From contig JAISLW010000268.1 of NCBI GenBank assembly GCA_031277105.1, forward strand, positions 98,698-162,697: a DNA stretch of 64,000 bases, given 5' to 3'. Positions 19,960 through 60,683 of the stretch are shown here, one piece after another. The notes under the pieces were generated by a model that saw only the letters and a list, made by a program, of their open reading frames with translations, was not told the origin of the DNA and did no database searches. Numbering within the stretch: the stretch's first letter is position 1; every line of letters begins with the position of its first letter. The DNA is from Planctomycetaceae bacterium. GTDB lineage: Bacteria > Planctomycetota > Planctomycetia > Pirellulales > Thermoguttaceae. The position numbers and the translations under genes were made by a program.

Positions 19960-20271
19960 TTAAAGGTTGTCCGCTGAACCTTCGGAAGCCCAGCGTGCTG
20001 TATCCATCGCTTTGCGAAATCGACCGTCTAGTAATTTATGCTCTTCTGCTGTTAACTCTTTACTTTGCCACATAGACCATGCTTTTTCATACGCTATTTT
20101 TGCTTCCCTACGGGCTGCATACGCCTTTTTTGTAGTAGACTCTAACTCTTGCAATAACTTGGCTACTTCACTTGCCGTAATAGCGTTAAACACCGACATC
20201 TGACTTGTCGATCCTGTTTGACCGTTTTGTAACGATTCAAATAAACTTATATCCGCAACATTATTATTCAT
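19960..20271 (-). CDS. shared-leader family protein (member 6)
   Basis: N-terminus MNNNVADISLFESLQNGQTGSTSQMSVFNA. Confidence 0.6.
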   Translation of the reverse strand: MNNNVADISLFESLQNGQTGSTSQMSVFNAITASEVAKLLQELESTTKKAYAARREAKIAYEKAWSMWQSKELTAEEHKLLDGRFRKAMDTARWASEGSADNL

Positions 20272-20283
20272 GTTTTTACTCCT

Positions 20284-21538: not shown

Positions 21539-21877
21539 TCACTTTCGTTTTGCGTTAATACGTTTATCTAATTGACTCATGGATTTTAGCGCCCGTTCTG
21601 CTTCGTCTTTTGAGCCTTTGCCCGAATAATACGCTCTCGCTTTATCGTGATAATCAGATTCAGCCGCATTCGCTTTACGCGTTAAATGAGCAATACCGTT
21701 TGAACCGTTTTCAACATCGTCGTCTTCTTCATTACGCGTTTTCAAATTATTACGTCGTTGTTGACCGCGACTCAACGCATCAGCTAAAATACCATTTTCT
21801 ACATCGATACCAAACGCGGCATTTTGTGCCACTTGTATCTGGTCAAATAATTCTATATTCGCAATAAAATCTTTCAT
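21539..21877 (-). CDS. divergent shared-leader family protein (member 7)
   Basis: N-terminus MKDFIANIELFDQIQVAQNAAFG aligns with the ADISLFESLQ leader. Its start overlaps the stop of the 551-aa gene. Confidence 0.5.
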   Translation of the reverse strand: MKDFIANIELFDQIQVAQNAAFGIDVENGILADALSRGQQRRNNLKTRNEEDDDVENGSNGIAHLTRKANAAESDYHDKARAYYSGKGSKDEAERALKSMSQLDKRINAKRK

Positions 21878-23572: not shown

Positions 23573-23596
23573 TATATTGCTCGTACTTGAAATTCA
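23573..23596 (-). promoter_or_regulatory. conserved 24-nt intergenic box (minus strand TGAATTTCAAGTACGAGCAATATA)
   Basis: 22/24 identical to 60387..60410. In both places a GC-rich hairpin precedes it and a gene start follows it. Confidence 0.35.
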
Positions 23597-23652
23597 TTGA
23601 TATTAAAGTACAGACGCAAAGCATTGCGTCTGTATAAAAGTTAGGCAAGCGA
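23581..23652. repeat. 72-nt element, left arm of an inverted repeat bracketing the capsid gene block
   Basis: Its reverse complement matches 25898..25968 at roughly 85% by eye. Confidence 0.7.
23609..23634 (-). terminator. terminator-like hairpin after the capsid block
   Basis: TACAGACGCAA-AGCA-TTGCGTCTGTA is an 11-bp perfect stem with a 4-nt loop, about 45 nt past the stop at 23677. The trailing U-run is weak (CUUUAAU). Confidence 0.45.
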
Positions 23653-25897: not shown

Positions 25898-25968
25898 TCG
25901 CTTGCCTAACTTTTGTACAGACGTAATACATTGCGTCTCTACTTTATAACAATGAAATTCAAGTACGA
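25898..25968. repeat. 71-nt element, right arm of the inverted repeat bracketing the capsid gene block
   Basis: TCGCTTGCCTAACTTTTGTACAGACG...CAATGAAATTCAAGTACGA matches the reverse complement of 23581..23652. Confidence 0.7.
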
Positions 25969-33547: not shown

Positions 33548-36500
33548 TTAATCTCTAAATTTAACAGGTTCTTTAGGAATTACTTCAACAATCATTTTTG
33601 GCGGTGAAGAACTTCGACTGTATCGAAGCACTTTTATTTGTGTTCTAGCGGGTAGTGCTATTTCGTCAAGTGAATGCCACGTTGTCCCTTTATTACCTAT
33701 TGGAATAATATACGAACCAACAGGCACATGAATTTCAATTATACATTCGCCAAATGCTTCTTTATGTTTCGGTTCATTAAAAGCCGTTTCGGTCGCAAAT
33801 GTTGAAACTATACCCAACCATACAAATTTTTCGCCAACTTTGTGATTGTCAAAATGATTAAAATCATGTACTCTTCGATATAAAATTAACGGTACTTTTG
33901 TCGGTTCTGCAATTTCTTGTAACGTTGCGAGGTCTTCTAACATTTGTTTGCCTGAAACTGTTACATTTTTTCCTGTTTTTGGGTTTTTATAAGTTTTAGA
34001 ATATTTTTTTAAATCGTTTTTTTGCTGTTCTGTTAGTTTACCTTCTGTTGATGCTTTATGCAACTCTTGTAAAGCGTATTCATCTTTTGCATCTCTGTCT
34101 AGACTAACGATGCCACTGTACGTTTTGATATTTGAATAAGTTTGAACTGGGCGTACTCCTTTTTCGACAGTTTCTTTTTTTGCCCAATATTTATCCACTA
34201 ATCGACTATTCAATGTTTTATGTGAATATTTGACGTGATCAAAATCAATTCGTATGTTACTGTCATACGCCACATCAATATTTACCAGATCGTTAAACAA
34301 ATGCGATAAATGATCTACTTTGTTTGCCGCTTTTCTTACAGTATTAATATAATCTTGAACGTCGGGAAGTTTATTAATAGTATGCCTGTTGAAGTCGCCA
34401 GATTCAAGTATTTTTTGATATTTTTTTCGTTTAGGAACAATTTCGGCTAAATATTTGTCTAGATCTATGCCCGCCTCTTCTATCTGTGAAATATACGATC
34501 TCGCTTCTTTATACATATCGACAACGTATTTTTCATACAGGATATGTTTTCTTTGTGCAATATCGGCATATTTATGCTTGTACTCTGTAATTTCTGTATC
34601 AATTCTTTTTAGCATTCGTGATGCTTGACCAGTAATAATTGAATCCTTGTAATCCGCCGCTAAAGCGGCCGCTCGTAATTCGCTAGCCTCTTCTATTCTT
34701 ACTTTGTTACGTAATTTTTTATAGTCAGAATCAGCGTCAAGTATCATTTCAACATCGATTCCGATTGCTTCGGCTTCTGTTTTGTCCTGTTCAAAACGTT
34801 CCTTTAATTCGGCTTTGGCTTGTTTCAAATTGTTAGCGTGTATCCTAACGTTATCGTCTAATCTTTTTGCGGTATCTATTATTGATTCTTTGGTGCGTTT
34901 TATTTGTTCTGTTTTTGTCAATCGTTTTGCGATTTCGGGCGTTACCCAAGTACAACGGCAGTTTCCAGTCCAAGTGCAAAAACCATTTTCCATCACGTAA
35001 ATCGTATGCCATTTTTCTAACTCGACACAATACACTTTGCCCGTATGTTGCGTGATTGCTCTAGTCAATGACTGCGAATTGACAGCTACGTGATGCAATC
35101 GTGAAATTCGATAACAAATAGAATTTATTTGAATTGATCGGTCAATAAATTGTCGACTAACGCTAGGGCTACCGCCGCAACGCAAAATCAAAAAACATAA
35201 ATCAGACATTAAACGACGCGACGTTGCAAGATAATAAATTTCCGTTTTGCTTTCATTCGTCAACTCAAGATTACGTAAAAATTCATAAACAATTGAAACA
35301 TCCGCATACTTTATTACGTCGGGTACAAACGTATTATTGCCGTTGTCAATTTGTCGTAAATGAGCCGCAAAATACGTATCGCTAAAAGGAATACTTGTAT
35401 TGTTAGTATTGTTAGTTTTGATACGGTTTAGAGTATTGTCAAGCAGCCAAACGGCGACGCATTGAGCGTACAATTTAATATCAATTTCATACGAACCTAC
35501 AAAAACAGTTTTAGTTGACTGCGACTTAAACCGATGCATTCGCGTAGGCAAATAATAACCTTGAACCAAATTTTCATCGGCAATTTTAGCGGCGTCGATA
35601 AAATGAAACGACATATCAAAACGTCTCACGCAGTACATTTGGTGATTTGCCGTTACTGTCAATTGGAAGCGTCGCCCTTTGAATTCTATTGCGTTTCCGT
35701 TGTAATCGTATTCGATTTTTTTTGTTGCTTTTATGAAATCGGTTTCGCCAGTTTCGGGATTTTCGGACAAGAATAAATCATTTTCAACATCAATTTCAGA
35801 AATTGATTTCCATCCTTTGTCGGTAAAAATTTGCGTGTTTGGTTTTGTGAAGCAGTTCGGGTGGACGGGTATCATACCTCTTGCTTTTGCGATTGGTAAT
35901 CTTATGCCTTCGTTTTTTGCGCAGGCGGGGCAAACTTTGTTGTCGCCTGCGGTGTGCCATTCGGCTACGGCTGCGACTTCTTTTATGCCCATTGTATCGT
36001 AAGCGTCTAATTGTGCTTCGGCATGAAATTCAACTAACAAATCGCGTGAACCTGTTATGACGTTTTTTGCTTGTTTATCGATTTCGGCGAGTACGGCGTT
36101 ACCTATAATTGACGGCGCTTCTTTGCGGTTTACGCCGGTCAATATGATATTTTCGATGGCGGCGCCTAATTGCGATCCTTTGTTTGCGTAATACGACGTA
36201 TATTTTGTCAACAACGTTTTATGCGTATTGGCGCTTGCCGTGCTTGTTTGTACGGCGGCGAAAAAAGCGTCTTTGTTTCCCGCTTGGTAATCGGCGGGAT
36301 TTTTTATTTTTTGAGAATAAGCGGATGTTGATTTATGACCGTCGGCGTATGCTCGGTTCACGCCGTGTTTGTACGCCATATCTGAATATTTTGCAATAAA
36401 CGCCGTATCGATTAACGTTGTTATGCCCGCTTTGATTGCTTGCGTCATTTGCGTTACGAACATTTCGTCGTATTCATACGTAGTAGTTCCGTTTTGCGTA

Positions 36501-36640
36501 ACGGGCGTAACTTGTAATTGTTTCAAAAACGTATTTTTGATCTGTTTGGCAAACGCAGTATAACGTCTCCGTATTTCCGCCAACATCGGTCGTCTGATAC
36601 TTTGCATTCGCGTAGGGTCTTGCTGCATTGCTGTAGCCAC
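33548..36640 (-). CDS. MuF / SPP1-gp7-like minor head protein fused to a C-terminal ADP-ribosyltransferase domain; interrupted by an intein
   Basis: The MuF-family signature P-x-H-P-N-C-R-C is split as ..IPVHPN|C...N|CRCTW. The C-terminus has an R-S-E-like ART triad: LILYRRV (Arg), IVSTFATE (S-T-x), LDEIALPAR (catalytic Glu in an E-[IV]-x-L-P context). Confidence 0.65.
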   Translation of the reverse strand: MATAMQQDPTRMQSIRRPMLAEIRRRYTAFAKQIKNTFLKQLQVTPVTQNGTTTYEYDEMFVTQMTQAIKAGITTLIDTAFIAKYSDMAYKHGVNRAYADGHKSTSAYSQKIKNPADYQAGNKDAFFAAVQTSTASANTHKTLLTKYTSYYANKGSQLGAAIENIILTGVNRKEAPSIIGNAVLAEIDKQAKNVITGSRDLLVEFHAEAQLDAYDTMGIKEVAAVAEWHTAGDNKVCPACAKNEGIRLPIAKARGMIPVHPNCFTKPNTQIFTDKGWKSISEIDVENDLFLSENPETGETDFIKATKKIEYDYNGNAIEFKGRRFQLTVTANHQMYCVRRFDMSFHFIDAAKIADENLVQGYYLPTRMHRFKSQSTKTVFVGSYEIDIKLYAQCVAVWLLDNTLNRIKTNNTNNTSIPFSDTYFAAHLRQIDNGNNTFVPDVIKYADVSIVYEFLRNLELTNESKTEIYYLATSRRLMSDLCFLILRCGGSPSVSRQFIDRSIQINSICYRISRLHHVAVNSQSLTRAITQHTGKVYCVELEKWHTIYVMENGFCTWTGNCRCTWVTPEIAKRLTKTEQIKRTKESIIDTAKRLDDNVRIHANNLKQAKAELKERFEQDKTEAEAIGIDVEMILDADSDYKKLRNKVRIEEASELRAAALAADYKDSIITGQASRMLKRIDTEITEYKHKYADIAQRKHILYEKYVVDMYKEARSYISQIEEAGIDLDKYLAEIVPKRKKYQKILESGDFNRHTINKLPDVQDYINTVRKAANKVDHLSHLFNDLVNIDVAYDSNIRIDFDHVKYSHKTLNSRLVDKYWAKKETVEKGVRPVQTYSNIKTYSGIVSLDRDAKDEYALQELHKASTEGKLTEQQKNDLKKYSKTYKNPKTGKNVTVSGKQMLEDLATLQEIAEPTKVPLILYRRVHDFNHFDNHKVGEKFVWLGIVSTFATETAFNEPKHKEAFGECIIEIHVPVGSYIIPIGNKGTTWHSLDEIALPARTQIKVLRYSRSSSPPKMIVEVIPKEPVKFRD
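34961..35854 (-). mobile_element. intein (298 aa) in the HPN|CRC motif of the MuF-like protein
   Basis: Insert begins CFTKPNTQIF and ends TWTGN, followed by +1 Cys. Removing aa 263-560 restores PVHPN-CRCTW. The middle region has degenerate LAGLIDADG-like blocks. Confidence 0.6.
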
Positions 36641-36770: not shown

Positions 36771-37112
36771 TTAAAAAGTTTTACCGTGTTTGTGTTGACG
36801 TGTTTTGTTAAATTCCATTTTTGCTTGCATTGCTTTTGCTATATCCCAATTTCGACCGTATGCCAAATCCATTAAGCGTATAATCAAATCGGCTAATTCT
36901 TCTTCAACTGCCGAAAACGCAGGAATATGTTCGCTTGCAGGATTGCCGTGTCGCAAACCTTCCAGCGCTTCCGATAATTCAGAATGCATCAACGCAATAC
37001 ATTCGCCGTTGTTTCGTTCCTCGTCCCAAAAGCCGGACGTTGCGGATTGGTCAAAACACAACTTCGCAACTTTATTAAATTCAGCGATAAACGCATCGTA
37101 ATTAAAATTCAT
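36771..37112 (-). CDS. MazG-like nucleoside triphosphate pyrophosphohydrolase
   Basis: HSELSEALEGLRHGN....EEELADLIIRLMDLA is the E-x-x-E...E-x-x-D MazG helix pair. Start set at ATG 37112 (MNFNYDAF); the track start is a TTG inside an upstream hairpin. Confidence 0.7.
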   Translation of the reverse strand: MNFNYDAFIAEFNKVAKLCFDQSATSGFWDEERNNGECIALMHSELSEALEGLRHGNPASEHIPAFSAVEEELADLIIRLMDLAYGRNWDIAKAMQAKMEFNKTRQHKHGKTF

Positions 37113-37122
37113 TGATTTAAAG

Positions 37123-37148
37123 TAGAGCCGCAACGCATTGCGGCTCTA
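37123..37148 (-). terminator. terminator-like hairpin (same family as 23609..23634)
   Basis: TAGAGCCGCAA-CGCA-TTGCGGCTCTA. Both arms differ from the 23609 copy but pairing is preserved (covariation). It lies about 63 nt past the ParB-like stop. Confidence 0.45.
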
Positions 37149-37210
37149 TAAAAGTTAGCAGGTTAAGTTAAACAAAAATTCAAGGGCGAATAATTTAAAA
37201 CAGTTTAAAA

Positions 37211-38264: not shown

Positions 38265-38519
38265 CTAGTCAAACAGGCAATCAGCGTAAACGAGTAATTC
38301 GTCTAGATCATGTTCGTTGACAATCCACACGCAACGATATTCTTGCTGTTGGTCAAGTTTGTCAAAATCATAAGAGTAAAAACGCTCGCAATCCGTAAAC
38401 TCTTCGCTTTGACGCAACAAATCTAATTCGTCGTCATAACTTGACCATTTACAATCATACTTTTGAAATAACATACTCATTTCAAATATTGCGTTGTTTT
38501 TGATGCAATTGACTAGCAT
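38265..38519 (-). CDS. small acidic hypothetical protein
   Basis: 84 aa. Starts 3 nt after the ABC ATPase stop, and its first 11 nt lie inside repeat B. Confidence 0.45.
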   Translation of the reverse strand: MLVNCIKNNAIFEMSMLFQKYDCKWSSYDDELDLLRQSEEFTDCERFYSYDFDKLDQQQEYRCVWIVNEHDLDELLVYADCLFD

Positions 38520-38592
38520 TATTCAAAAACTTTGCATAAACAATTTGCCGTCGTCATTTAAGTCGTTCAATTCAAGACAAATTTCATCGGGA
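38509..38592 (-). repeat. 84-nt direct repeat B, copy 1 (3' end of ABC ATPase gene plus start of next gene)
   Basis: 82/84 identical to 41587..41670. Confidence 0.95.
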
Positions 38593-40283
38593 TTAAAAGA
38601 ATAAAGCGAACCGTCGTTTTGCGTAGGAATATCTGAGTCAATTAGAGATATAATGTATTGAATATTGTATTGCTTACAAATTGATTTCATTCTATTCAAC
38701 AATCTAATTTTTATTCTGTTGTCTAAACCTTCTATAATTCCATCGTGATAAACGAAACGGAAAAATGATTTTTGCGAATAATAAATTAACAACGCAATAT
38801 CAAACGCCATACAAAGTAATTTTTTATACGAAGTCCCTTCTGATTCCGAAGTTGAGTTTTTATCAATAAAATCAATATATTCGGCGGTAAAATCTATATT
38901 TCCCTTTGTATTTTGTTTTATTGAAATAATAGCGTCCGTACCTACAATATCTTTTAACAATTCATTAAATATTTTATTTATGTCTGCGTGATTTCTTTTA
39001 CCTATTGTTTCTTGAATAGTCTGTATTGTTTTCTGCATTTGATCGCCAATTACTTTTAACTCCTTATTGTACAACGCCGTCTTATCAAGTAATTCTAATT
39101 TTTCATTTAACCTGTCAATATCAGACTCTAATATAGATAATTGTTTTTGATACGTTTTGAATTTTGTATATGTATCTTTTTCAGTCAAAAAAGACAATTT
39201 TTCACTCTTGGCGTTTTCCAGTTCTACAAGTTCCGTATCAATCGAATAAAGTTCCTTTTCTAGTTTTTTCAAATTTTCTTTCAAGAATTTATTTCGTTCT
39301 TCTGAAATAGATCTGTTAAATTTTTCTAACTCGTCGTATTGTTTTTTTAATTTATCTGGAAAGTATAAATTTACTTCGTCAAAAAGCGTTTTTAATTTTT
39401 GAACGTTTATAGTATTTTTTGCGTTTCTTATTGATTCTTCAATTTTAGATATTTCATAATTTACGCGGTATCGGTCTGTATGCAACGTTTGAATTTTGAA
39501 ATCTAATTGTTCAATAATCTCTTTTGAAATATTCTTGTCTTGTAAGAAAAAATTAAATTTATCTATTGTTTTTTCTGCTATTATTTTTTCTCTTTGTTTT
39601 ATATCGAGTAAACTTAACAATTTATCTTTTTCTGTAATATCAATATTTGCGTCTTGTTTTAATATGTCAATAGTGTCTTTTATCTTTTTTGCTTTTTGTT
39701 CCAAGTCTGCTTTATGCTTGATTATGTCGGCGTTAAAACCTAACGCATCAAACACAAACGGTTTCCAATCGCTATGTTTTCCCTTAAATTTATTTAACTT
39801 AAAAACGTATGAATAATCTTGTTGAGTCCTTAAAAAATAAGTGATAGACTGCCTGTAAGACCAATTAGTTAAAACATCAAAATTTAAGTAATCTTTAAGT
39901 TTTTCTTTTGCTTTGTCAAACGTCAATTCAGTTTCGTCCCAGACAACAGGCGCAATAAAATCGTTTAATTCAAAATCGTTTTGCTTAAAAGATATTTTTG
40001 AAGCCGTATTTACGCCGCGTTTGATTACAAGATATTTTCCGCTGTTGAGTTTTATTTCTAAATAAAAAGTTTGATCCGAAAATATTGAATTGAACAAGAA
40101 ATGGTCGGCGGTAAATCTACCTAGCAACAAAAAATCAATTACGTGAATGAGCGACGTTTTACCCAAGTTGTGCGTATCAGTCTTGTTGGTTTTATCTTGT
40201 ATCGTCGCCAAGACTACGTTAAAATGTTCGTTAAATTTTACGTTCTTAAAATTCTTATCAGAAAATATTTTTACCAGTTTCAT
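38523..40283 (-). CDS. ABC-3C system ATPase (SMC/Rad50-like ABC ATPase with coiled-coil insert, DUF2326-like)
   Basis: N-terminal Walker A in NVVLATIQDKTNKTDTHNLGKTSLIHVIDFLL, a ~300-aa coiled-coil middle, and a C-terminal Walker B/D-loop FFRFVYHDGIIEGLD. Confidence 0.65.
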   Translation of the reverse strand: MKLVKIFSDKNFKNVKFNEHFNVVLATIQDKTNKTDTHNLGKTSLIHVIDFLLLGRFTADHFLFNSIFSDQTFYLEIKLNSGKYLVIKRGVNTASKISFKQNDFELNDFIAPVVWDETELTFDKAKEKLKDYLNFDVLTNWSYRQSITYFLRTQQDYSYVFKLNKFKGKHSDWKPFVFDALGFNADIIKHKADLEQKAKKIKDTIDILKQDANIDITEKDKLLSLLDIKQREKIIAEKTIDKFNFFLQDKNISKEIIEQLDFKIQTLHTDRYRVNYEISKIEESIRNAKNTINVQKLKTLFDEVNLYFPDKLKKQYDELEKFNRSISEERNKFLKENLKKLEKELYSIDTELVELENAKSEKLSFLTEKDTYTKFKTYQKQLSILESDIDRLNEKLELLDKTALYNKELKVIGDQMQKTIQTIQETIGKRNHADINKIFNELLKDIVGTDAIISIKQNTKGNIDFTAEYIDFIDKNSTSESEGTSYKKLLCMAFDIALLIYYSQKSFFRFVYHDGIIEGLDNRIKIRLLNRMKSICKQYNIQYIISLIDSDIPTQNDGSLYSFNPDEICLELNDLNDDGKLFMQSF

Positions 40284-40510
40284 ATCGTTACCATATCCGA
40301 TTGTTGGTTGTAGTTAATTTTGCCTAGTAGATATAAAAACGAAAGCGAATATTCAAACAGATCGCCTATTTCTTTGCCTACTTTTTTAATAATAGCGTTT
40401 TTTAAATCATCATATTTTATTATTCCGCTTCTTGCAATTTCGTACATTATCAAACCTGAAATATACAAAACTGAATATTTTATATCCGTGTGTTTGTCGG
40501 GCGAAAGCAT
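40280..40510 (-). CDS. ABC-3C middle component candidate (small all-alpha protein)
   Basis: 76 aa from ATG 40510 with a strong SD (AAGGAGAATTAATATT-ATG); the track start is GTG. ATGA overlap with the ATPase gene. Confidence 0.5.
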   Translation of the reverse strand: MLSPDKHTDIKYSVLYISGLIMYEIARSGIIKYDDLKNAIIKKVGKEIGDLFEYSLSFLYLLGKINYNQQSDMVTI

Positions 40511-40514
40511 AATA

Positions 40515-41435
40515 TTAATTCTCCTTTTTTCCAATATCACAATTACAGTACATATAGTGTAACAAAATTCGCACTAGTCTTTTTTTGCCCTTCAAGTCGG
40601 CGTTATTATTGACCGTATAATCATAAAACGTTTCTAACAGATTTTCAAATTCCACAAATTCATTTCTTCGTAATGTAATCTTGGCGTTTAACTCGCTTAT
40701 TGTATCGTCGTATAAATCTTTTAATCCAGCGTTAATTGGAGAAACTAAAAAGGTTTTTATTTGATTAAAATATTCAAAATTACGTTTCATAACGTCGTCA
40801 AAATAAGATTTACTTAATTGGTTCAACTCGTTTTTCTTTTCTATCTCAATTTTTGTAAAATCAATAAGATTAGGCAAGACTGTTGTTTTCTTAAAAGTTT
40901 CGTTTATTGCTATAATAATTTCTTTTAGGTCAGATTCGTCAAATTCTAGTGGATTCAGTAGATTCTTGAGATTTGCAGTACGTACAATATCAGGATATGT
41001 TTGTAAAAGTTGTTGTATTTTCTCATTGGCGATAATCTCATAAACAACGTTTTGTTCATTAAATAACTCGGCTATTTTGCCGTCTTGAACTCCTGTTAGT
41101 TTTCTGTTAGTAAACAATAAATAATAATCTAATTCGCCGTTCTGTTTTAACGTTTGAATAGAGATTATTTCGTTTTTCAAGATAGTATAAAAATCGCTGT
41201 CCGAGCAACTCGCATTTTCTTTAGTTGTATGTTTTGCTTGAATAATTATTTTTCCATCCCAAGGTTTAGACTCGCTTGGAAAACAATTCGCCTGTCCAAT
41301 AAAGCGCCCGTCTTTTCCGCCGTCTTTGCCTTTAGTAAACGGGATAATTGCTTCGCCTAATATTTTATTACAAATGAGTATTACAAGTTTTTCAAACTCG
41401 TCATCATTTAATTCTTGCAATGGAAATTGACTCAT
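40515..41435 (-). CDS. ABC-3C effector candidate: N-terminal Mrr-like PD-(D/E)xK restriction-endonuclease fold plus helical C-terminal domain
   Basis: DDEFEKLVILICNKILGE...GKDGGKDGRFIG...GKIIIQAKH fits the F-E-x-L-V...G-x-D-x-G-x-D...[VI]-Q-x-K nuclease core. Confidence 0.6.
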   Translation of the reverse strand: MSQFPLQELNDDEFEKLVILICNKILGEAIIPFTKGKDGGKDGRFIGQANCFPSESKPWDGKIIIQAKHTTKENASCSDSDFYTILKNEIISIQTLKQNGELDYYLLFTNRKLTGVQDGKIAELFNEQNVVYEIIANEKIQQLLQTYPDIVRTANLKNLLNPLEFDESDLKEIIIAINETFKKTTVLPNLIDFTKIEIEKKNELNQLSKSYFDDVMKRNFEYFNQIKTFLVSPINAGLKDLYDDTISELNAKITLRRNEFVEFENLLETFYDYTVNNNADLKGKKRLVRILLHYMYCNCDIGKKEN

Positions 41436-41503
41436 TTTTAAACAATCCTTTCAATAATCTACTGTACCTTAATCGTCATTTTTGACATATAGTCAATTGC
41501 AAA

Positions 41504-41573
41504 AATTATACAGATTATCGAACAACAAGCAAATACCAAAAAAAATTCGTCCTATTGATTCTGTATTTTGTCG
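41504..41573 (-). repeat. 70-nt direct repeat A, copy 1 (upstream of the ABC-3C cassette)
   Basis: 70/70 identical to 43372..43441. Confidence 0.95.
41505..41532 (-). promoter_or_regulatory. sigma70-type promoter inside repeat A (TTGCTT-16 nt-TATAAT)
   Basis: Minus strand reads TTGCTTgttgttcgataatctgTATAAT, about 70 nt upstream of the ATG at 41435. Confidence 0.5.
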
Positions 41574-41586
41574 AGTGTTTGCACTA

Positions 41587-41670
41587 TTGACTAACATTAT
41601 TCAAAAACTTTGCATAAACAATTTGCCGTCGTCATTTAGGTCGTTCAATTCAAGACAAATTTCATCGGGA
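41587..41670 (-). repeat. 84-nt direct repeat B, copy 2 (orphan relic of the ABC ATPase 3' end)
   Basis: Begins 2 nt after the stop of the HIRAN gene. Its two differences from copy 1 are both synonymous in the frames used by copy 1. Confidence 0.95.
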
Positions 41671-41671
41671 A

Positions 41672-42322
41672 TTATTTATAAATTCTAATAAAAACTCTGT
41701 TTAATCTACCGTTTTTATCGATGTCTTTGATTTTAATTTGCAAATCTTGACCGCCTTTTTTATAGAATGCTCTTGAATGGACGATTTTTACATAACCTAA
41801 AAATACGTCATTTTTGAATACTTTGACTGCTTTGTTGTCATGTTCATTTTTGGGGTCGTATTCCCATCGTAACATATCGCCTTCTGTCAATAGTTCAGGC
41901 GATACGTTATAACGAGAAATGTCGCAAATTTCACTGATAAATGACACTCCATTTAGAGGCGTGTAATCAGCCAAAAGTTCAAAATTATCAATAGCGAGTA
42001 ATCCTTGCGTGTGTGCTAGCATATAATATTTATCCGACGTGTAACGTTTATCAATTTCCCAATAATCATAATATTTCTGTATGTCTTCCCTAATAGGATT
42101 TATAAGACGATGCCCAAACGTATCTAATACATTCTTGGTATAAGTTTTCGTTAAATCAGAAAAAGCAACATAAGAGGTAAAACCAATTTCATCAGCCTTC
42201 TTTTGGTCAATCAAATAACGAAAACAAAATTCGCCGTTACTTTTTTTTATCTCGCCTACAACATGTCGATCCATGTCATTACTCTGCCGCCAAACTAAAT
42301 ATAAAGAACCCAAATATTTCAT
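41672..42322 (-). CDS. HipA-N-terminal-subdomain-like (HipS-like) + HIRAN domain fusion protein
   Basis: The C-terminal GDMLRWEYDPKNEHDNKAVKVFKNDVFLGYV matches the HIRAN core (G-D-x-L-x-L...N-x-x-D-x-N-A-[IV]-x-V...-L-G-Y-[VI]). The N-terminal LYLVWRQ..HVVGEIKKSNGEFCFRYL resembles the HipA N-terminal domain. Confidence 0.6.
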   Translation of the reverse strand: MKYLGSLYLVWRQSNDMDRHVVGEIKKSNGEFCFRYLIDQKKADEIGFTSYVAFSDLTKTYTKNVLDTFGHRLINPIREDIQKYYDYWEIDKRYTSDKYYMLAHTQGLLAIDNFELLADYTPLNGVSFISEICDISRYNVSPELLTEGDMLRWEYDPKNEHDNKAVKVFKNDVFLGYVKIVHSRAFYKKGGQDLQIKIKDIDKNGRLNRVFIRIYK

Positions 42323-43287
42323 AATAAAACCTCTTTTAATTTATCAAAACGCAATAATATTAATTGTACTATCAACTTTTTTCTGTTGTCAGGTAATTTA
42401 TTTTCATTCAAATTATCAGGTAAATTTTCATCAATTGTATAAATAATTTGACGAATACGATCTTTGTTAAAAACGCTAATAACCCGTTTGATCTCTTGTA
42501 TAACAACATCTTTATATTTTGTATATCCTATAAACATTCGTATTAATTCAAAATGGCTTATCTTTTTATCTTCCCACCTAATTTCACATCGATCATTGTT
42601 TATATACCTATCCAACAATTCCGTTTGTAATAAAAATTTTTCCACATCTTTGTCTAATAATTCACGCCCAAGACAACTACCGCTATCATAGATAGGCGAA
42701 AAAACAACGGTATTGTTATTAGAAGTAGATTTAAGTAAATTTGATAGTTTTCGTATGTTCGATTGTTTTTTATGGTTGTTTATTTCTATAATAAATCCCC
42801 AATTTTCTTGATGTCTGTCGCCATTACCAATTAAACTATCAAAAATAATAGTTTTTATTATCTGGTTTACTTGATTTGCTAACTTGTGCGCTTTTAATGC
42901 ACTCTCAATAAAATGGAATGTGTACTGCGTATATGATTGTTTATTTTCAGGAGCGTATGTATTGTCGTAATTGCGGAGATAGTCAATGATTTCAACAAAT
43001 GTATTATTAGTTTTATCAATCATTGATTTTGAAATACAACCTATTTTATCTTTATTATATGCAATATCATAATGTAAAGTATTAAACCCTAATTCATTAC
43101 CTATTGCCGATGCAATAATTTCCGACCAAAATTCATATCTATATGCATCATTACTTCGTTGTAACGAAGTCTTAAAATAATATAATGATCTATCGTCAGG
43201 GTTTTCAACAATTGCTTTATTACGAGAACCTCTTGCAACTACATATTTTTTTTCAATCCAATCCGAAACGTCATAAAAATTTGCCAT
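42319..43287 (-). CDS. HipA-like Ser/Thr kinase core (HipT-like, lacks the N-terminal subdomain)
   Basis: ARGSRNKAIV, catalytic loop LIGNGDRHQENWGF (D-x-H-x-x-N), and IYDSGSC (DFG-equivalent). ATGA overlap with the HIRAN gene. Confidence 0.65.
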   Translation of the reverse strand: MANFYDVSDWIEKKYVVARGSRNKAIVENPDDRSLYYFKTSLQRSNDAYRYEFWSEIIASAIGNELGFNTLHYDIAYNKDKIGCISKSMIDKTNNTFVEIIDYLRNYDNTYAPENKQSYTQYTFHFIESALKAHKLANQVNQIIKTIIFDSLIGNGDRHQENWGFIIEINNHKKQSNIRKLSNLLKSTSNNNTVVFSPIYDSGSCLGRELLDKDVEKFLLQTELLDRYINNDRCEIRWEDKKISHFELIRMFIGYTKYKDVVIQEIKRVISVFNKDRIRQIIYTIDENLPDNLNENKLPDNRKKLIVQLILLRFDKLKEVLL

Positions 43288-43371
43288 TTAATTATCAGTA
43301 ATTATCTGTTTATTACTTTTGAGTACGGCGACATTGATTCTGGTGTACAATACATGTATTCTGTGCGATTG

Positions 43372-43441
43372 AATTATACAGATTATCGAACAACAAGCAA
43401 ATACCAAAAAAAATTCGTCCTATTGATTCTGTATTTTGTCG
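43372..43441 (-). repeat. 70-nt direct repeat A, copy 2 (upstream of the kinase/HIRAN cassette)
   Basis: Identical to 41504..41573. Confidence 0.95.
43373..43400 (-). promoter_or_regulatory. sigma70-type promoter inside repeat A, copy 2
   Basis: Same TTGCTT-16-TATAAT, about 86 nt upstream of the ATG at 43287. Confidence 0.5.
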
Positions 43442-43575
43442 GGCGTCTGTTACGTTTGGATTTTTTTGTTTTTTGTAGGCGTGTTCTAATTGTATTCTTA
43501 CGTAACAGACGATTTTGCGGTTTTATTTGAATTTTTGTAACGATAAAACTCTAGAGTAAACCATTGTCAATGTTT

Positions 43576-45120
43576 TTATGTTGCTTGTGCTGATTGCGAT
43601 TGTTGCTCTAACTTGGCGACTAATTGTTTATAGTCTTCGTTTTCGCGGTATAGGATGTTGTCTTGTTTAGCGTCTAGTTGTTGTTTTAATTCGGCGATTT
43701 GTTTTCGCAAGATTTCATTTTCATTGCAAACAGCGTCTAATTGCTGTTGTAATTCGGTTGTTTTAGTAACTCGTTTTGTTACAGGCGTTAAATGGTCAAC
43801 GTCGGTTGTTGTCAATTCGTATTTAACCGGCAATGGAATTTTTTCGTGCAAATCGCGGTCTACTGGCATTAGCAACGACGTAAAACTTTTAACACTGTGA
43901 TCGCTGTCAAATTGTATAACGCCGCCGTTAGTGTATATTGATTTTATGCCAAGAGACAATATACCCAGTAGATATTTCTTATTGACTACTAATGAATATT
44001 CGGGTTTTAATCCGCACGTAGTTTCGGGACTAAACGTAATGCGATAATTATTCATTGTTGACCATACGGTTGTCATTGCGAATTGTCCGTTTTCTAAACG
44101 TTCTAATTTTATCAATGTTTCGCCGTCGCATGAGCCGTTGTCGGTTTTGTTAGGGTTGACGGGTAACGCTTTCAATAATTTTATAGCGTTGGTCAAATCA
44201 GTTGCGTTAAAATCACAATACGACGTTTCGGGTGTAATTTCAGGAAAGGCGTTTTTCCACGTTACCGGTCTAATCTTATCGGACTTCAAATATAGACTGT
44301 AACCGCCTAGATCAATTACCAAGTATTGGTCAATTGTTCCTAGCGTTACAGATTGCGTAACGTCCAACAACGGCGACAACCACAGCGGCAACAAGAACGG
44401 TGAAACTGTAAAACCTTCTTCCGTTGTAGGATTTTTCGGATCGTATTTGCCTGTACATTCTTGTCGCCATTGTTGCCAAGCGTCTAATAATCTTTCGTAC
44501 TCGTCGACAATCCGCAATTCAGAATAATCAGGCAACGCCCATAAGTACGGCGGAACGTCTATGTTGTTATACGCTATCATTCGGCGCCCGTTTGTAGCAT
44601 ACATTTTATTATCCATAATATGTACGTATTCATACATCATGTGAGTATCAGAATACTCTGCAAAATCTTTACATGCCAAAAACGCTTCCGCAAAACGAGC
44701 GGACGCGATTGGGTTTAATATCTTATACGGTTCAAAATGGATTGGATGTGAATTACGGTAACCGCTACAATCAAATTCGCTAACGCACAATTGAATTGAT
44801 TGTTCAATCTGATTGTCTGTAAAATGCAACGTAACAGGTTCGGTTAAATCGTCTGAAAACGTCATTACGACTTCGCCGCTTTTACCCGCAGCCCGAATAA
44901 AATCTTCATAAGAAACCGCAAACGGATTGACAATAACATTGTCTGCATCGTTATGTAAATCGATACGAATATATTGATGGTCAAATGTTGTTATCCAAGC
45001 GTGATAACCGCTAAATTGAACTTTTCCGCAATGGTTCAAATTGCACATATCGCGAAATTTCTTTTTTAGCGCTTGGGCAATACGGTAAATCGTGGTACGA
45101 GGAATAAGGATTTCTTTCAT
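43576..45120 (-). CDS. DNA sliding-clamp (beta-clamp)-like protein with C-terminal coiled coil, divergent
   Basis: KVQFSGYHAWITTFDHQYIRIDL and YVHIMDNKMYATNGRRMIAY resemble the two clamp A-T-D-x-x-R-x blocks. Weak. Confidence 0.35.
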   Translation of the reverse strand: MKEILIPRTTIYRIAQALKKKFRDMCNLNHCGKVQFSGYHAWITTFDHQYIRIDLHNDADNVIVNPFAVSYEDFIRAAGKSGEVVMTFSDDLTEPVTLHFTDNQIEQSIQLCVSEFDCSGYRNSHPIHFEPYKILNPIASARFAEAFLACKDFAEYSDTHMMYEYVHIMDNKMYATNGRRMIAYNNIDVPPYLWALPDYSELRIVDEYERLLDAWQQWRQECTGKYDPKNPTTEEGFTVSPFLLPLWLSPLLDVTQSVTLGTIDQYLVIDLGGYSLYLKSDKIRPVTWKNAFPEITPETSYCDFNATDLTNAIKLLKALPVNPNKTDNGSCDGETLIKLERLENGQFAMTTVWSTMNNYRITFSPETTCGLKPEYSLVVNKKYLLGILSLGIKSIYTNGGVIQFDSDHSVKSFTSLLMPVDRDLHEKIPLPVKYELTTTDVDHLTPVTKRVTKTTELQQQLDAVCNENEILRKQIAELKQQLDAKQDNILYRENEDYKQLVAKLEQQSQSAQAT

Positions 45121-45235: not shown

Positions 45236-46717
45236 TTATTTTAGACCGAAATTTAGCACGGATAAATTGTCGATTTGTTCGGAGTTGTCTTCGGAGATTG
45301 CTTTTGCTCTTGCGGCTTGTGAGTTTTGCAATATTGAGTCCGCTTCCTTGTCGGACATATTCAGGAACATCATTAAAAAATCTTTTGGGCAGATTATTGT
45401 TTCGATGTTGTTAGACAGATATGAGCCGATAAGGTTTAATTTGTTGTTTGCGTTTTCGATTTTTTGTTGGTCGGTTCCGGCGTTCAAGTCGTCCCATTTG
45501 ACAAAGAAAATACCGTCTTTGGGCGCTGGCAATTCGCCGATTTGAATCAGCCGCGTTATAAACGGTTTCAATACGAAAGGCGTTAAATAACGTTTCATAC
45601 GCGTCATTAACGTTTTATTCCATTCGGCTACATCTTGCGAACTTGCCAGATCGCCGCGTTCGGAACCGCAAAATATACGCTTCGGACACGATAGCGCTAT
45701 TGCTATCAATTCAATGTTTATATCAATGTGTTCTCTTGGCGATTGGACTTGCGGGCTTAACGAATTAACGTGAGCGTTGGTCAAACCGAACCAGCGTTGT
45801 AATCCGTTTTCATACGCCGCTATTTGTTTTTTCATACTGTCTAAATCTAATTGCACGCCGGACGTAACATCGTCGACCGCTTCAACGCTGAAACCTGGAT
45901 AAGCGCCTTTATAAAACATTTCGCCGGACGAACCTGCTATTTTGCGTATATCTAAAACGTTGTTATAGACTAATTGTAAACGGGGCATACCGAATACAGT
46001 CGAAGTTTGACGATTATCAGCAAGGTGCAAAACCCGCGTCCAATGCACGTCAAGCGTCCGCATATCAACCATGCCCGTATCGTCTTGACAATTATCAGGA
46101 TCGTTAAATTGAATCCGATATAAAACAGGTTGACCGTAACGCGGGTTAGAAGTATTAGTCTCAATTTGAGAAACCTCAATTTGACTATGCGCAAAAGCAC
46201 GCAAATAAATCAATTGATATTTACCCTGCTTCAACGTTTCGGGCAAATATTCAACGCAATCTATCGGCTCGCTCAAATCTTTACCGTCTGAAACGCCAAA
46301 TAAAATTAAGCCATAAGAACCGATGCCTGATAAAATATCAGCAAGCGTCAACACGCCGTAACATTCAAACAATTCAAACGTCCGTTCTAACTTCTTTTCA
46401 AAATCGCTAGTTGACAATTGGTCTTGATCATAAATTTCAGGTTCGGACAACCAGCATTCATTCGGATAAATTGAAACAACTCGATTCGCAATTGCGTTGC
46501 GGTCGAATAATTTCTTGTACATCAATTTGTTGACTATATCAGGGTATCCGAATTGCGTATCGTAATCGCGGTTTAACGTATTCGTATCAACTTCGCCGTT
46601 TAATCCGGCAAGCAACGACCGTCTGTACAACGCTTGAATTATTTCGTTACGTACTACAACATCGTTTTGCAATTTCTCGTTTTCGATTATTACGTCTTTT
46701 TTCAGATTTTTTGCCAT
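45236..46717 (-). CDS. portal protein candidate (DUF1073-like)
   Basis: 493 aa. The size and N-terminal region (..FGYPDIVNKLMYKKLFDRNAIANRVVSIYPNECW..) match my recollection of DUF1073 portals. A MuF-like gene lies downstream on the same strand. Confidence 0.6.
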   Translation of the reverse strand: MAKNLKKDVIIENEKLQNDVVVRNEIIQALYRRSLLAGLNGEVDTNTLNRDYDTQFGYPDIVNKLMYKKLFDRNAIANRVVSIYPNECWLSEPEIYDQDQLSTSDFEKKLERTFELFECYGVLTLADILSGIGSYGLILFGVSDGKDLSEPIDCVEYLPETLKQGKYQLIYLRAFAHSQIEVSQIETNTSNPRYGQPVLYRIQFNDPDNCQDDTGMVDMRTLDVHWTRVLHLADNRQTSTVFGMPRLQLVYNNVLDIRKIAGSSGEMFYKGAYPGFSVEAVDDVTSGVQLDLDSMKKQIAAYENGLQRWFGLTNAHVNSLSPQVQSPREHIDINIELIAIALSCPKRIFCGSERGDLASSQDVAEWNKTLMTRMKRYLTPFVLKPFITRLIQIGELPAPKDGIFFVKWDDLNAGTDQQKIENANNKLNLIGSYLSNNIETIICPKDFLMMFLNMSDKEADSILQNSQAARAKAISEDNSEQIDNLSVLNFGLK

Positions 46718-49289: not shown

Positions 49290-50687
49290 TTATTCGTATC
49301 GTTTTTTGCGTTGTAACGTCGTTTTGACTAATACGTCGTTCCACACGTCCGCTACAAGTTGTCGAAATTCGTCTTCACGGTTTGAACGTTCTATTAACGT
49401 TATCAATTTTTCTTTCGTTCCCGATAAATTCATTTGCGGTATAGTCAAAGTCCCGCCGGATGCGTTTTTACCGGAAGTTTCTATTGCTTTTTCCGAAAGT
49501 AAATAATCAATACACGAACCGAGATCGTCAATTCCGTAAGTATTGTGGATGTTAAAATTCACTTTGGCGTATTGACCTGTGATTCTGTTTTTCTTGATAC
49601 TCGCTTCGCAGATTGAACCTACAGTCCGTTTAATATTGTTTACGTTTTTTGTCAATTCGCCGACAGATTTCGTCCACAATTCGACGTGCGAATAGAATTT
49701 TAGCGCTTTGCCGCCGCCTGCAATTTTCGGTGCGCCGTAACCGGTTATATTATCCCGCGTCTGCGTAACAATAATTAAAATACTGCCAGTCTTGCGTAAC
49801 CTTGAAACAAAACGGCGTATGTTTTGTGAATTAAATTTCGCTTTACCGTCGCCGTAACTCGCTTTGATCTTGTCCGACTTTTCACCGTTGTCAATTTTAT
49901 CCGCCTTACCCGACAACATCGATTGTATCGCCGATTTGTTACTGTCAAATAATTTCTCATTCGCAAGACTATCCAACGAATCCATCGAATCAAGCACGTA
50001 AATAAACGGTTTTTTTTGTTTTATCTTGTCGTCAAGATACGAATAAAACTCTTCAACTAGCGAACTGTATATCGGCGTACCGTCTTTGTCTTTCGCAGGC
50101 GGCTCGCATCTGCGGGCTAATTTACTGCCAAAATAACGCTCAACGTCAAACAAAGCGCCGTTTTCTACATCATCGTAAATTAAACGATAATTGTCATAAA
50201 CAGGATTATTCGCAGCCTCCGCAAGTATCGAATACGTCAACCACGTTTTACCTGAAGCAGAATCGCCGCATAACCAATAATAAGCGCCAGGCAATATCGA
50301 AGCCTGCCAATTATTCGCTATCGCAAGATTCAATAACGTACTGCCCGTACTCAATAATTTCGTCTTATCGATCCCGTTAGACAATTGCACGCCAAGCATC
50401 GCCTCACGCAACTGTCCCGTTTCAGAATCAGCAGCGCCGTCAACTTTTTTATCGCTAGCCGCATTCGTAACAGATTCAATTACAGGCGTTTCATATTGCT
50501 TGCGCTTTGGTTTGTCAAGTTTGACCGATTCAGTCTTGTCAAGTTTGTCAGAATTATCAGGCGTATTATCGATGCTGTTGTTTTCTGTTTTATTTACGTC
50601 TGACATTTTCACTATTGTTACGTTTGACGGCGTTTCTTTTTTATCTTTTATCTTTTCAGATTTTTCAATTTCTTTTACTTCTACCAT
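49290..50687 (-). CDS. RecA-family recombinase (UvsX/RecA-like) with low-complexity N-terminal extension
   Basis: Walker A LCGDSASGKTW, Walker B FIYVLDSMDSL, and the RecA L2-region block TQTRDNITGYGAPKIAGGGKALKFYSHVEL (compare N-Q-x-R...G-G-x-A-L-K-F-Y-A-S-V-R-L). Confidence 0.75.
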   Translation of the reverse strand: MVEVKEIEKSEKIKDKKETPSNVTIVKMSDVNKTENNSIDNTPDNSDKLDKTESVKLDKPKRKQYETPVIESVTNAASDKKVDGAADSETGQLREAMLGVQLSNGIDKTKLLSTGSTLLNLAIANNWQASILPGAYYWLCGDSASGKTWLTYSILAEAANNPVYDNYRLIYDDVENGALFDVERYFGSKLARRCEPPAKDKDGTPIYSSLVEEFYSYLDDKIKQKKPFIYVLDSMDSLDSLANEKLFDSNKSAIQSMLSGKADKIDNGEKSDKIKASYGDGKAKFNSQNIRRFVSRLRKTGSILIIVTQTRDNITGYGAPKIAGGGKALKFYSHVELWTKSVGELTKNVNNIKRTVGSICEASIKKNRITGQYAKVNFNIHNTYGIDDLGSCIDYLLSEKAIETSGKNASGGTLTIPQMNLSGTKEKLITLIERSNREDEFRQLVADVWNDVLVKTTLQRKKRYE

Positions 50688-51059: not shown

Positions 51060-51131
51060 ATTTAACCTCGTTTTTATGCTTGATTGGTTTTTGGGAACGT
51101 TAGCGTAAAAAACAATTCATTACGTTACATT

Positions 51132-51204
51132 TGTGCAGGCAGGATTCGAACCTGCGATCTTAAGGTTATGAGCCTTATGCGTTGACCAACTACGCTACCG
51201 CACA
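51132..51204 (-). tRNA. tRNA with CAU anticodon (elongator Met or Ile2-type)
   Basis: Hand-folded 73-nt cloverleaf. Acceptor TGTGCGG/CTGCACA, D-arm GCGT-AGTTGGTCA-ACGC, anticodon arm TAAGG-CTCATAA-CCTTA, variable AGATC, T-arm GCAGG-TTCGAAT-CCTGC. No encoded CCA. Confidence 0.85.
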
Positions 51205-51294
51205 ATCTGGATACGACACAGAGAGATGTACATGCCGTATCCTTGACCGATACGCGAATAGGCGCGTATCAACCACAATGTGTTTTCTTATTGA

Positions 51295-60386: not shown

Positions 60387-60410
60387 TATACTGCCCGTAC
60401 TTGAAATTCA
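60387..60410 (-). promoter_or_regulatory. conserved 24-nt intergenic box (minus strand TGAATTTCAAGTACGGGCAGTATA)
   Basis: 22/24 identical to 23573..23596, and likewise preceded by a GC hairpin and CTTTTAAT. Confidence 0.35.
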
Positions 60411-60424
60411 GCGATTAAAAGTAA

Positions 60425-60444
60425 AGACGCAATGCATTGCGTCT
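60425..60444 (-). terminator. terminator-like hairpin (same family)
   Basis: AGACGCAATGCATTGCGTCT is a perfect 20-nt palindrome. Confidence 0.4.
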
Positions 60445-60683
60445 CTGCAAACAAACGAGTGTAAACGCAAATTAAAATACGAACAATTTAAATAACGGGA
60501 AAACAAAAAGATTACGCAATTCCTAATATCTTGATATACAGAATCAATAAAAAATACAAAAAGAAAAAATAACGCAGTCAAACAGTACACTAAAATTTTT
60601 TATGAAAAAAACGTGAAATCTTATTTGCAACAATTTGACCGCGTCAAATCCGACAAAAGTTAGCGGTTTTCTGTAACCTATTA

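Follow-up and report, generated by a model that had tools for sequence, protein, structure and literature searches.

Two intact defence modules lie in tandem between shared repeats in a large uncultured phage

The 64-kb stretch of DNA that was analysed (the window) comes from a large, uncultured phage of about 171 kb that encodes its own replisome. In its morphogenesis region, between portal and MuF-like genes, lies an island whose genes are all on the minus strand, with the portal gene and an orphan neighbour on one side and a MazG/MuF-like block on the other. Read along the minus strand, the order is A2, a hipI-like kinase and a hipN-like HIRAN protein, B2, 12-13 nt, A1, a three-gene ABC-3C/Lamassu module, and B1; the five genes and four repeat copies lie where a sequence-only reading had placed them. 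G+C content is 26-32% across the island (38.4-43.5 kb) against 37-44% in its flanks, and the island is compositionally foreign. The features are as follows.

49290-50687: UvsX-like recombinase
43576-45120, minus strand: orphan gene of the upstream flank, 514 aa, with a coiled-coil C-terminus; its sole match is itself on a 171,649-bp contig
43444-43511, minus strand: perfect 12-bp inverted repeat with a 44-nt loop, adjoining A2 on its outer side (fold -15.3 kcal/mol, z -4.6)
43372-43441, minus strand: Repeat A2, 70/70 identical to A1, with weaker homology to 43449
43288-43371, minus strand: cassette-specific leader of the kinase module, containing the 12-nt palindrome AATACATGTATT (43349-43360)
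42319-43287, minus strand: hipI-like HipA-family kinase, 322 aa (Pfam HipA_C 1.8e-7; PADLOC PDC-M03A 1.3e-54)
41672-42322, minus strand: hipN-like protein, 216 aa, with a putative HIRAN domain at its C-terminus (PADLOC PDC-M03B 8.3e-29 over its full length)
41586-41670, minus strand: Repeat B2, non-coding remnant of the 3' end of the ABC ATPase gene together with the 17 nt after its last sense codon
41574-41585, minus strand: B2-A1 junction, AGTGCAAACACT, read directly
41504-41573, minus strand: Repeat A1, 70/70 identical to A2, with weaker homology to 41581
41436-41503, minus strand: cassette-specific leader of the ABC-3C module, with TTGAC-N5-GTCAA and TGCAATTGACTA
40515-41435, minus strand: LmuA-type effector, 306 aa (Pfam CTD12 1.8e-29; N-terminus PADLOC PDC-S73 1.9e-18)
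40280-40540, minus strand: middle component (LmuC-type), about 76-86 aa (Pfam MC8 4.6e-11, MC6 3.2e-7)
38523-40283, minus strand: LmuB-type SMC-like ABC ATPase (DUF2326), 586 aa (Pfam DUF2326 9.8e-25; PADLOC PDC-M68B 4.3e-54, LmuB 4.3e-12)
38508-38592, minus strand: Repeat B1, the native ATPase 3' end (67 coding nt and TGA), then ATA, ATG and CTAGTCAAT (9 nt)
38265-38519, minus strand: downstream orphan ORF, acidic, 84 aa from its first ATG; the database copy starts at Met16

The first module resembles hipIN, which pairs a HipA-homologous kinase with a partner that has HipS-like and HIRAN domains (PMC8262856). The kinase scores 31.5 bits against HipA_C (cut-off 30.5), carries a GNGDRH motif, is 57% identical to its best non-self homologue and is a short HipA-family core kinase of the type that defines hipIN / PDC-M03. 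The start of the hipN-like gene overlaps the kinase stop by 4 nt, and its 216-aa product is full length against homologues of 218 aa; its putative HIRAN domain, at 24.6 bits, falls just under the Pfam cut-off of 24.7. The pair is a hipIN-type module and a candidate toxin-antitoxin or abortive-infection system. Its homology to relatives runs from 43230 to 41677, within the gene bodies only, and in related phage fragments (L024 and L025/L026) hipIN is found elsewhere, after MuF.

The second module is of the ABC-3C/Lamassu kind, with a nuclease-CTD12 effector, a small middle component and an SMC-like ATPase in which a Walker A motif (GKTS) is visible; the effector has an ABC-3C C-terminal domain, and its N-terminal domain is restriction-endonuclease-like but weakly assigned (Mrr_cat, E 0.013). 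ABC-3C has been placed within the Lamassu superfamily (PMC10586767), and a defence role is predicted for the module. The order of effector, middle component and ATPase matches that in L001, L003 and L028. The ATPase is 70% identical to chromosomal copies whose contigs carry Fib_succ_major genes (Fibrobacterota-type), and one homologue, at 69% identity, is named Fibromonadaceae; DNA homology to the bacterial cassettes, at 70-72%, begins at the effector start and ends at the ATPase stop. Among 50,697 GenBank phage records the ATPase has no tblastn match and the kinase a distant match in only three. The domain content and gene order of both modules match those of Lamassu / ABC-3C / DdmABC and hipIN / PADLOC PDC-M03, although here it is a large phage, and not a chromosome or prophage, that carries them.

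All five cargo genes are intact and all five proteins align over their full length with homologues. The cargos had been taken for defence genes from the letters alone, and the Pfam and PADLOC profile matches agree: both are genuine, intact, mobile conflict modules. The locus is an accessory 'defence' island holding two intact modules. Homology to relatives elsewhere ends at the gene boundaries of each module, and both modules have the identical 70-nt sequence on their 5' side and the same 85 nt, with two mismatches, on their 3' side.

Alignment confirmed that the two copies of Repeat A are identical at 70 of 70 positions; the repeat can be extended to 78 nt with three mismatches, all in the outer 8 nt. 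Its 28-nt core occurs twice in the window, where shuffled sequence predicts 0.00 matches, and searches of the 64 kb with nhmmer and blastn-short gave no further copy of A or B. Each copy has a T8 tract, then TTGCTT and TATAAT 16 nt apart, and stops 1 nt past the -10. Of the promoter proposed for each copy, the -10 matches the sigma-70 consensus at six of six positions (TATAAT) but the -35, TTGCTT, at only three of six, so that Repeat A is absent from a consensus promoter scan. The pattern TTGnnn-N16-18-TATAAT occurs six times on the minus strand of the window, which is about chance by a rough estimate. As judged from these motifs, Repeat A is only a plausible promoter. It has no internal stem-loop (the fold in the A2 context has a z of +0.34), no terminator-like hairpin was found in A or B, and no Rfam family scored above its gathering score. 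The 12-bp inverted repeat at the outer edge of A2 has no counterpart upstream of A1.

Downstream of the shared repeat the two leaders part company: that of the kinase module has no similarity to the ABC-3C leader or to relatives, and TGCAATTGACTA in the ABC-3C leader is an inverted copy of 38504-38515. The palindromes that had been proposed as operators occur at chance frequency. TTGACTATATGTCAA is a 5-N5-5 inverted repeat, imperfect as a palindrome and one of 95 such in the window, and AATACATGTATT is one of 19 perfect 12-mer palindromes.

Repeat B was described as 84 nt with 82 identities; two mismatches (38561/41639 and 38516/41594) stand, and alignment gives 85 nt with 83 identities. The ATPase's C-terminal 20 residues (EICLELNDLNDDGKLFMQSF), encoded by B1, are conserved in 38 of the 38 homologues inspected. 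B1 is a native, family-conserved gene end; B2 is therefore a non-coding footprint of the ATPase gene, in line with its earlier description as an orphan relic just after the HIRAN stop, for it starts 1-2 nt past the hipN stop, is closely preceded by a stop codon in the frame of the ATPase and lacks a usable start. B2 also retains the phage-specific 17 nt beyond the last sense codon of the ATPase (the downstream backbone), and is therefore a relic of the same type of locus as that of ABC-3C. It follows that the kinase/HIRAN module replaced an ABC-3C module. An integron gene cassette was considered and rejected: B has no significant structure (z about 0), and no integrase-like match was found among the ORFs scanned in and around the island.

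Both differences between the B copies had been called synonymous, and B1 had been read as the ATPase end plus the ATG of the next gene. The ATPase end is as described and the difference at 38561/41639 is synonymous in its frame; the difference at 38516/41594 is synonymous only if the ATG within B is used. That ATG may not be a real start, because the only database copy of the downstream protein, of 69 aa, begins at Met16 and matches residues 16-84, and the second difference may for this reason be non-coding. If both sites are coding, the probability that two random substitutions would both be synonymous is about 0.03. The pattern is suggestive of B2 having diverged while still coding, though two sites prove nothing.

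The 514-aa flank protein has no homologue except itself among 5.8 billion cluster representatives, nor has the 84-aa protein among 1.84 billion; there was no exact match to A or B in the viral collection, or to A in the metagenome or genome collections. The nearest portals are at most 47% identical, and in these distant relatives the interval after the portal differs in length and content, holding other genes (an orphan methyltransferase among them) and none of the flank genes, A or B. No single-cassette allele was seen because there is only one genome of this kind and no relative has A, B or the flank genes.

The earlier proposal of a hotspot at which related phages swap defence cargo through A and B is partly supported, with the exchange between phages itself conjectural. 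The simplest history is one of cargo replacement and an illegitimate B-to-A join. The ancestral locus would have been A, ABC-3C and the downstream gene. One locus copy would have exchanged the stretch between the approximate transcription start and a point 70 nt ahead of the ATPase stop for a leader and hipI-hipN, retaining the resident promoter and leaving B behind as a footprint. Next, a microhomology-type illegitimate join would have connected a point just past B in the hipIN copy to one shortly before A in its ABC-3C counterpart and placed the alleles in tandem; co-infecting genomes or sister molecules could have supplied the two copies. One reading of the junction, a statistically weak one, starts with a 2-nt indel, continues with TGCA, which the B1 flank shares, and closes with a diverged version of the sequence upstream of A2, with CA as the overlap; in it the microhomology of the 13-nt junction rests on 4-8 nt. 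Each module would be transcribed from its own copy of a host-type promoter and, as there is no terminator between them, transcription of the upstream module probably continues into the second one. The direct repeats, of 70 and 85 nt, would be substrates for the phage's UvsX-like recombinase. Taken as a whole, with replacement in one locus copy, an illegitimate tandem join, a promoter for each module and the repeats as recombinase substrates, this explanation seems to us somewhat better than an even bet.

The same anatomy is explained equally well, and with the same number of illegitimate joins, by events within a single genome: A - ABC-3C - B may have been duplicated in tandem and the interior of the upstream unit later overwritten by hipIN through two illegitimate joins, so that A and B would be untouched unit ends and never flanks of inter-phage exchange. 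Near-identical repeats (0/70 and 2/85 differences) are as expected of a recent duplication and no allelic genomes are known, but the hint that B2 diverged while coding runs the other way, and replacement edges that fall exactly after the -10 and after a stop codon suggest selection among many recombinants rather than a single event. We regard this course as unlikely, though with an appreciable chance of being right. A PeSL-type mini-circle has a slim chance: leader, hipIN, B, junction and A would have been excised elsewhere by repeat recombination and integrated by a single crossover at a resident A. One such crossover yields exactly the observed structure, the phage has a UvsX-like recombinase, and circles of this kind are documented for the promoter-bearing repeats of T4-type phages (PMC2839356); however, A has two copies in 64 kb as against about 50 PeSLs per T4-type genome, it has no internal stem-loop, and the circle can only derive from an earlier tandem array, which moves the origin of the B-A junction without explaining it. 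It is very improbable that the assembler concatenated two metagenomic strain alleles, A - hipIN - B and A - ABC-3C - B, across their shared repeats: the source is a short-read MAG contig and repeats of 70-85 nt are comparable in size to assembler k-mers, but the junction has bases present in neither single-copy flank (downstream of B1 or upstream of A2) and is therefore not a simple assembly join of two alleles, two sites distinguish B2 from B1 and three the outer 8 nt of A1 from those of A2, and an allele bubble offers no path from B back to A.

Morons of lambdoid phages are extra transcription units with their own promoter and a deviant base composition, inserted between two phage genes. The island resembles them as an extra unit of deviant composition with a putative promoter of its own between phage genes, but in it no terminator was found, and it consists of two tandem units with identical putative promoters and a shared 3' footprint.

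The closest known systems are the shuffling of PeSL (promoter-early stem-loop) cassettes in T4-type phages (Arbiol et al. 2010, PMC2839356; Comeau et al. 2014, PMC4122927) and the defence hotspots of P2 and P4 (2022, PMC9122126; NAR 2026, PMC13586616). PeSLs resemble Repeat A in size (about 70-100 nt) and in their AT-rich tract, and their sigma-70-like promoter has a putative counterpart in A. Like A, they are repeated beside non-essential genes in the plastic parts of large phage genomes that encode a UvsX-type recombinase, and a crossover between two copies would remove or add the flanked genes with a promoter and release circles. PeSLs differ in being present in dozens, whereas Repeat A has two copies in 64 kb of a genome of about 171 kb and lacks a stem-loop or terminator inside; B, the second homology here, is the 3' end of a gene and no regulatory cassette, the cargo consists of multi-gene defence modules instead of single ORFans, and any shuffling is conjectural.

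At the hotspots of P2 and P4, variable anti-phage cargo occupies a fixed site between core genes, the P2 site adjoining the portal gene, and whole systems are rapidly replaced while small non-coding remnants stay in the locus. Those hotspots are defined by hundreds of related genomes with conserved flanks, in contrast to the one genome with orphan flanks here, and their remnants have lost recognisable homology to defence genes (NAR 2026, PMC13586616), unlike the present remnant, which matches the 3' end of the neighbouring ATPase gene at 98% identity; the text consulted on those hotspots describes no duplicated promoters. Our phage, of about 171 kb and with its own replisome, is also not known as temperate.

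In the replacement-and-join history that we prefer, recombination between the A copies would delete 1,868 bp, with ABC-3C the only module left, and recombination between the B copies would remove 3,078 bp and spare hipIN alone; either event would release a circle with one module and a repeat. The locus might then be a self-resolving two-allele array from which the phage recombinase continually yields hipIN-only, Lamassu-only and double genomes, together with promoter-carrying circles for co-infecting genomes that bear A or B, a proposal that we advance as distinctly unlikely. If true, such an array would carry complete defence systems in the manner of PeSL cassettes, in phages of a lineage unrelated to T4.

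Two cargo modules stand in tandem in this phage, each between a copy of a promoter-like repeat (A) and a copy of a second repeat (B), and the arrangement is best explained by the replacement of one cargo followed by the joining of two copies of the locus. Repeat finding bore out the tandem layout much as the sequence-only reading had described it, with minor corrections. The copies of A (A1, 41504-41573; A2, 43372-43441) are identical at 70/70 positions, and the match stretches to 78 nt if three mismatches, all in the outermost 8 nt, are allowed; those of B (B1, 38508-38592; B2, 41586-41670) are 85 nt long with two mismatches. A 28-nt core of A matched the window twice, against 0.00 matches expected from shuffles, and whole-window repeat finding, blastn-short and nhmmer profiles revealed no third copy of A or B in the 64 kb. 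The long ORFs are all on the minus strand, on which the locus reads A2, an 84-nt leader, kinase, HIRAN protein, B2, 12-13 nt, A1, a 68-nt leader, effector, middle component, ATPase and an 84-codon ORF:

42319-43287, minus strand, kinase
41672-42322, minus strand, HIRAN protein
40515-41435, minus strand, effector
40280-40540, minus strand, middle component
38523-40283, minus strand, ATPase, its final 70 nt inside B1
38265-38519, minus strand, 84-codon ORF, its first ATG inside B1

The G+C content is 26-32% across 38.4-43.5 kb, against 37-44% on both sides.

The first module, hipIN, encodes a HipA_C kinase (PADLOC PDC-M03A match, 1.3e-54) and a HIRAN-domain protein (PDC-M03B match, 8.3e-29; the Pfam HIRAN match scores 24.6 bits against a cut-off of 24.7). 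The second is an ABC-3C system, a type assigned to the Lamassu superfamily in reviews (PMC10586767), and consists of a CTD12 effector whose N-terminus weakly resembles restriction endonucleases, an MC6/MC8 middle component and a DUF2326 ABC ATPase. Both modules look functional, since each of the five proteins matches its homologues over the full length. The nearest homologues lie on chromosomal contigs with Fib_succ_major genes (Fibrobacterota-type), in one prophage and on short phage fragments, and none of the contexts examined had A-like or B-like flanks beside them.

Several features identify B1 as the native 3' end of the ATPase gene and B2 as a footprint of it. The 20 C-terminal residues that B1 specifies (EICLELNDLNDDGKLFMQSF) are conserved in 38/38 homologues inspected, and the Pfam domain of the ATPase reaches residue 583/586. 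When the locus was compared with chromosomal ABC-3C cassettes, on Fib_succ_major-bearing (Fibrobacterota-type) and other short contigs, DNA identity stood at approximately 70-72% between the start of the effector gene and the stop of the ATPase gene and was at background level beyond. Past the final sense codon, B also holds 17 nt specific to the present phage, so B2 must have come from a locus of this type rather than from a foreign ATPase gene; it is non-coding because a stop just upstream closes the ATPase frame. Homology of hipI-hipN to its relatives (67% DNA identity, 43230 to 41677) is likewise limited to the gene bodies. From the homology limits of both modules, the replaced segment would begin 1 nt after the -10 element of A and end 70 nt short of the ATPase stop; the ATPase stub and a promoter duplicated to 1 nt past the -10 thus fix both breakpoints to the nucleotide. 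The level of conservation of B with bacterial ATPase genes (82-87% identity) is not exceptional, being equalled by other 60-nt windows of the gene.

Both differences between the B copies had been taken as synonymous. This stands for 38561/41639 (TTA/CTA), a leucine codon in the ATPase frame; the other, 38516/41594 (CTA/TTA), is codon 2 of the 84-codon ORF if translation begins at Met1, in B1, and may be non-coding, because the only database copy of that protein starts at Met16. The chance that two random substitutions in B would both be synonymous is approximately 0.03, provided that both sites are coding. The product of the ORF with this ambiguous start (38265-38519, minus strand) is a small, highly acidic orphan protein.

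The bases between B2 and A1 bear on how the tandem arose. The spacer of 12-13 nt reads AG, TGCA, AACACT; the flank after B1 is TGCA, that before A2 is CAGACGCC and that before A1 is CAAACACT. One reading is that the B flank was fused to the A flank where the two overlap by CA, as is typical of an illegitimate join, but this reading turns on very few bases. The best-supported model has two steps, in which the cargo would be replaced in one copy of the locus and an illegitimate B-to-A join between two copies would then create the tandem. Simple concatenation of two alleles by the assembler would also place two cassettes in series, but the junction contains bases absent from both single-copy flanks, and neither B2 nor the outer part of A1 is identical to its partner copy, which argues against such an artefact. 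Replacement followed by joining would leave two modules, each equipped with a promoter, and the phage's own recombinase could resolve the pair. Recombination between the A copies would delete 1,868 bp, removing hipIN and joining A to the ABC-3C leader, while recombination between the B copies would delete 3,078 bp and join hipN-B to TGCATCAAAAAC; the model therefore predicts two specific deletion products and two circles.

Repeat A contains a T8 tract and TTGCTT separated by 16 nt from TATAAT, and was thought to supply each cassette with the same promoter. The motif is present in both copies with a perfect -10; its -35 matches at only 3/6 positions, which is why a consensus scan missed it, and six matches to the loose pattern TTGnnn-N16-18-TATAAT lie on the minus strand of the window, roughly the number expected by chance on our own crude estimate. 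Host-type TTGACC-N17-TATAAT promoters found elsewhere in the window make a putative sigma-70-type promoter in A plausible. The proposal that palindromes downstream of the -10 act as operators fell away, as they are no more frequent than chance: the window has 19 perfect palindromes of 12 nt and 95 inverted repeats of the 5-N5-5 form, the class to which TTGACTATATGTCAA belongs. Elsewhere, a pair of near-identical sigma-70-type promoters (CAATTGACC-N17-TATAAT), 75 nt apart, precedes ORF 6706-6987 (~7030-7160, minus strand), and a GGCATA(T/C) motif that may be a phage-specific promoter element occurs 30-60 nt upstream of several starts (genes ending at 45120, 49217, 53068, 60241, 11612 and 30360).

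Neither A nor B folds better as RNA than shuffled sequence, and no Rfam family scored above its gathering threshold for either; B, with a fold z of ~0, was rejected as an RNA element or terminator. The outer homology of A2 is abutted by a perfect 12-bp inverted repeat (CGTCTGTTACGT / ACGTAACAGACG) whose 44-nt loop is A-rich (43444-43511, minus strand; RNA fold -15.3 kcal/mol, z -4.6), and A1 has no such element upstream. The ABC-3C transcription unit is bounded on both sides (41490-41501 / 38504-38515) by a 12-nt inverted repeat (TGCAATTGACTA / TAGTCAATTGCA), its B2 copy broken by 2 nt. It was spotted post hoc, with p ~7e-4 per window pair and ~0.03 after 42 comparisons, and there is no transposase, so transposon terminal inverted repeats were rejected.

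The island is hosted by a large phage whose lineage has been poorly sampled, as judged from the gene set of the window, the contig and the distance to its nearest relative. The window encodes a DNA polymerase, a primase-helicase, a clamp-loader-like ATPase, an SSB and a MazG-like pyrophosphatase, together with:

49290-50687, UvsX-like recombinase
45236-46717, portal
33548-36640, MuF-like head protein
51130-51205, minus strand, phage-encoded tRNA-Met, anticodon CAT

The sole database copy of the 514-aa upstream neighbour is on a contig of 171,649 bp assigned to the Planctomycetaceae MAG LBP59; the nearest viral contig (167,820 bp) has a portal of 44% identity, and among isolates the best portal match stays below 30%. 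A G+C-rich hairpin (GTACAGACGCAAnGCATTGCGTCTGT-like; 23573-23644, 25915-25940, 37088-37158 and 60387-60457) is conserved at intergenic sites upstream of structural genes, with one site inverted and a 29-nt motif alongside at 3/4 sites; it may be a late-gene regulatory element. A 135-nt unit stands twice in perfect tandem (16054-16323, 98% identity) within ORF 16009-16779. A conserved 5' end of 64-110 nt is common to five to seven genes (12487-12597, 14050-14113, 18902-19012, 19421-19531, 19835-19945, 20162-20272 and 21815-21878), which indicates a paralogous family with a shared N-terminus.

The sequence-only reading saw in the locus a hotspot where alternative defence cargos are swapped through A and B, which is reasonable and partly supported, its base being a single genome. 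Exact-pattern scans gave zero matches for A in viral, metagenome and genome collections and for B in the viral collection, and megablast found no match for 36.5-46.8 kb among 50,697 phage records. Nothing came of locus searches with the flank proteins of 514 aa and 219 aa or of a portal-profile scan of GTDB genomes, look-ups returned no exact-protein record for window proteins, and homologue searches with the 514-aa and 84-aa proteins returned only themselves, making both flank genes orphans. Portal-anchored loci from IMG/VR and JGI metagenomes were at most 47% identical, too far off to anchor on A or B. The portal-to-MuF interval is 8.6 kb here, 0.7 kb in one relative (L008) and 1.5 kb in another (L015), and an orphan DNA methyltransferase follows the portal in a third (L014). 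JGI samples 3300042593, 3300042596, 3300042605, 3300042609 and 3300042655, which by their numbers may form a single series, were the source of L024-L029. In the related phage fragments L024 (618-5437) and L025/L026 (L025, 156-3625), hipI-hipN lies right after a MuF-like gene and a small paralogue, unlike the present site, and in L025 is followed by a NAMPT gene. The variable interval and these different positions show that the post-portal region is plastic and that hipIN has moved within this phage group.

The closest analogue of the locus is the modular shuffling mediated by promoter-early stem-loop (PeSL) cassettes in T4-type phages (PMC2839356, PMC4122927), although the present repeats lack the internal stem-loop and the high copy number, with two copies in 64 kb. 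The closest ecological analogue is the P2/P4 defence hotspot (PMC9122126; PMC13586616). In the recent hotspot survey, the remnants are all unrecognisable and the mechanism is left unnamed (PMC13586616), whereas the remnant here is 98% identical to its source. A Lamassu-type system and hipIN inside a phage of ~171 kb with its own replisome are an uncommon combination among sequenced phages. A Lamassu ATPase stub so well preserved directly behind another system is a readable footprint of the replacement of one whole defence system by another.
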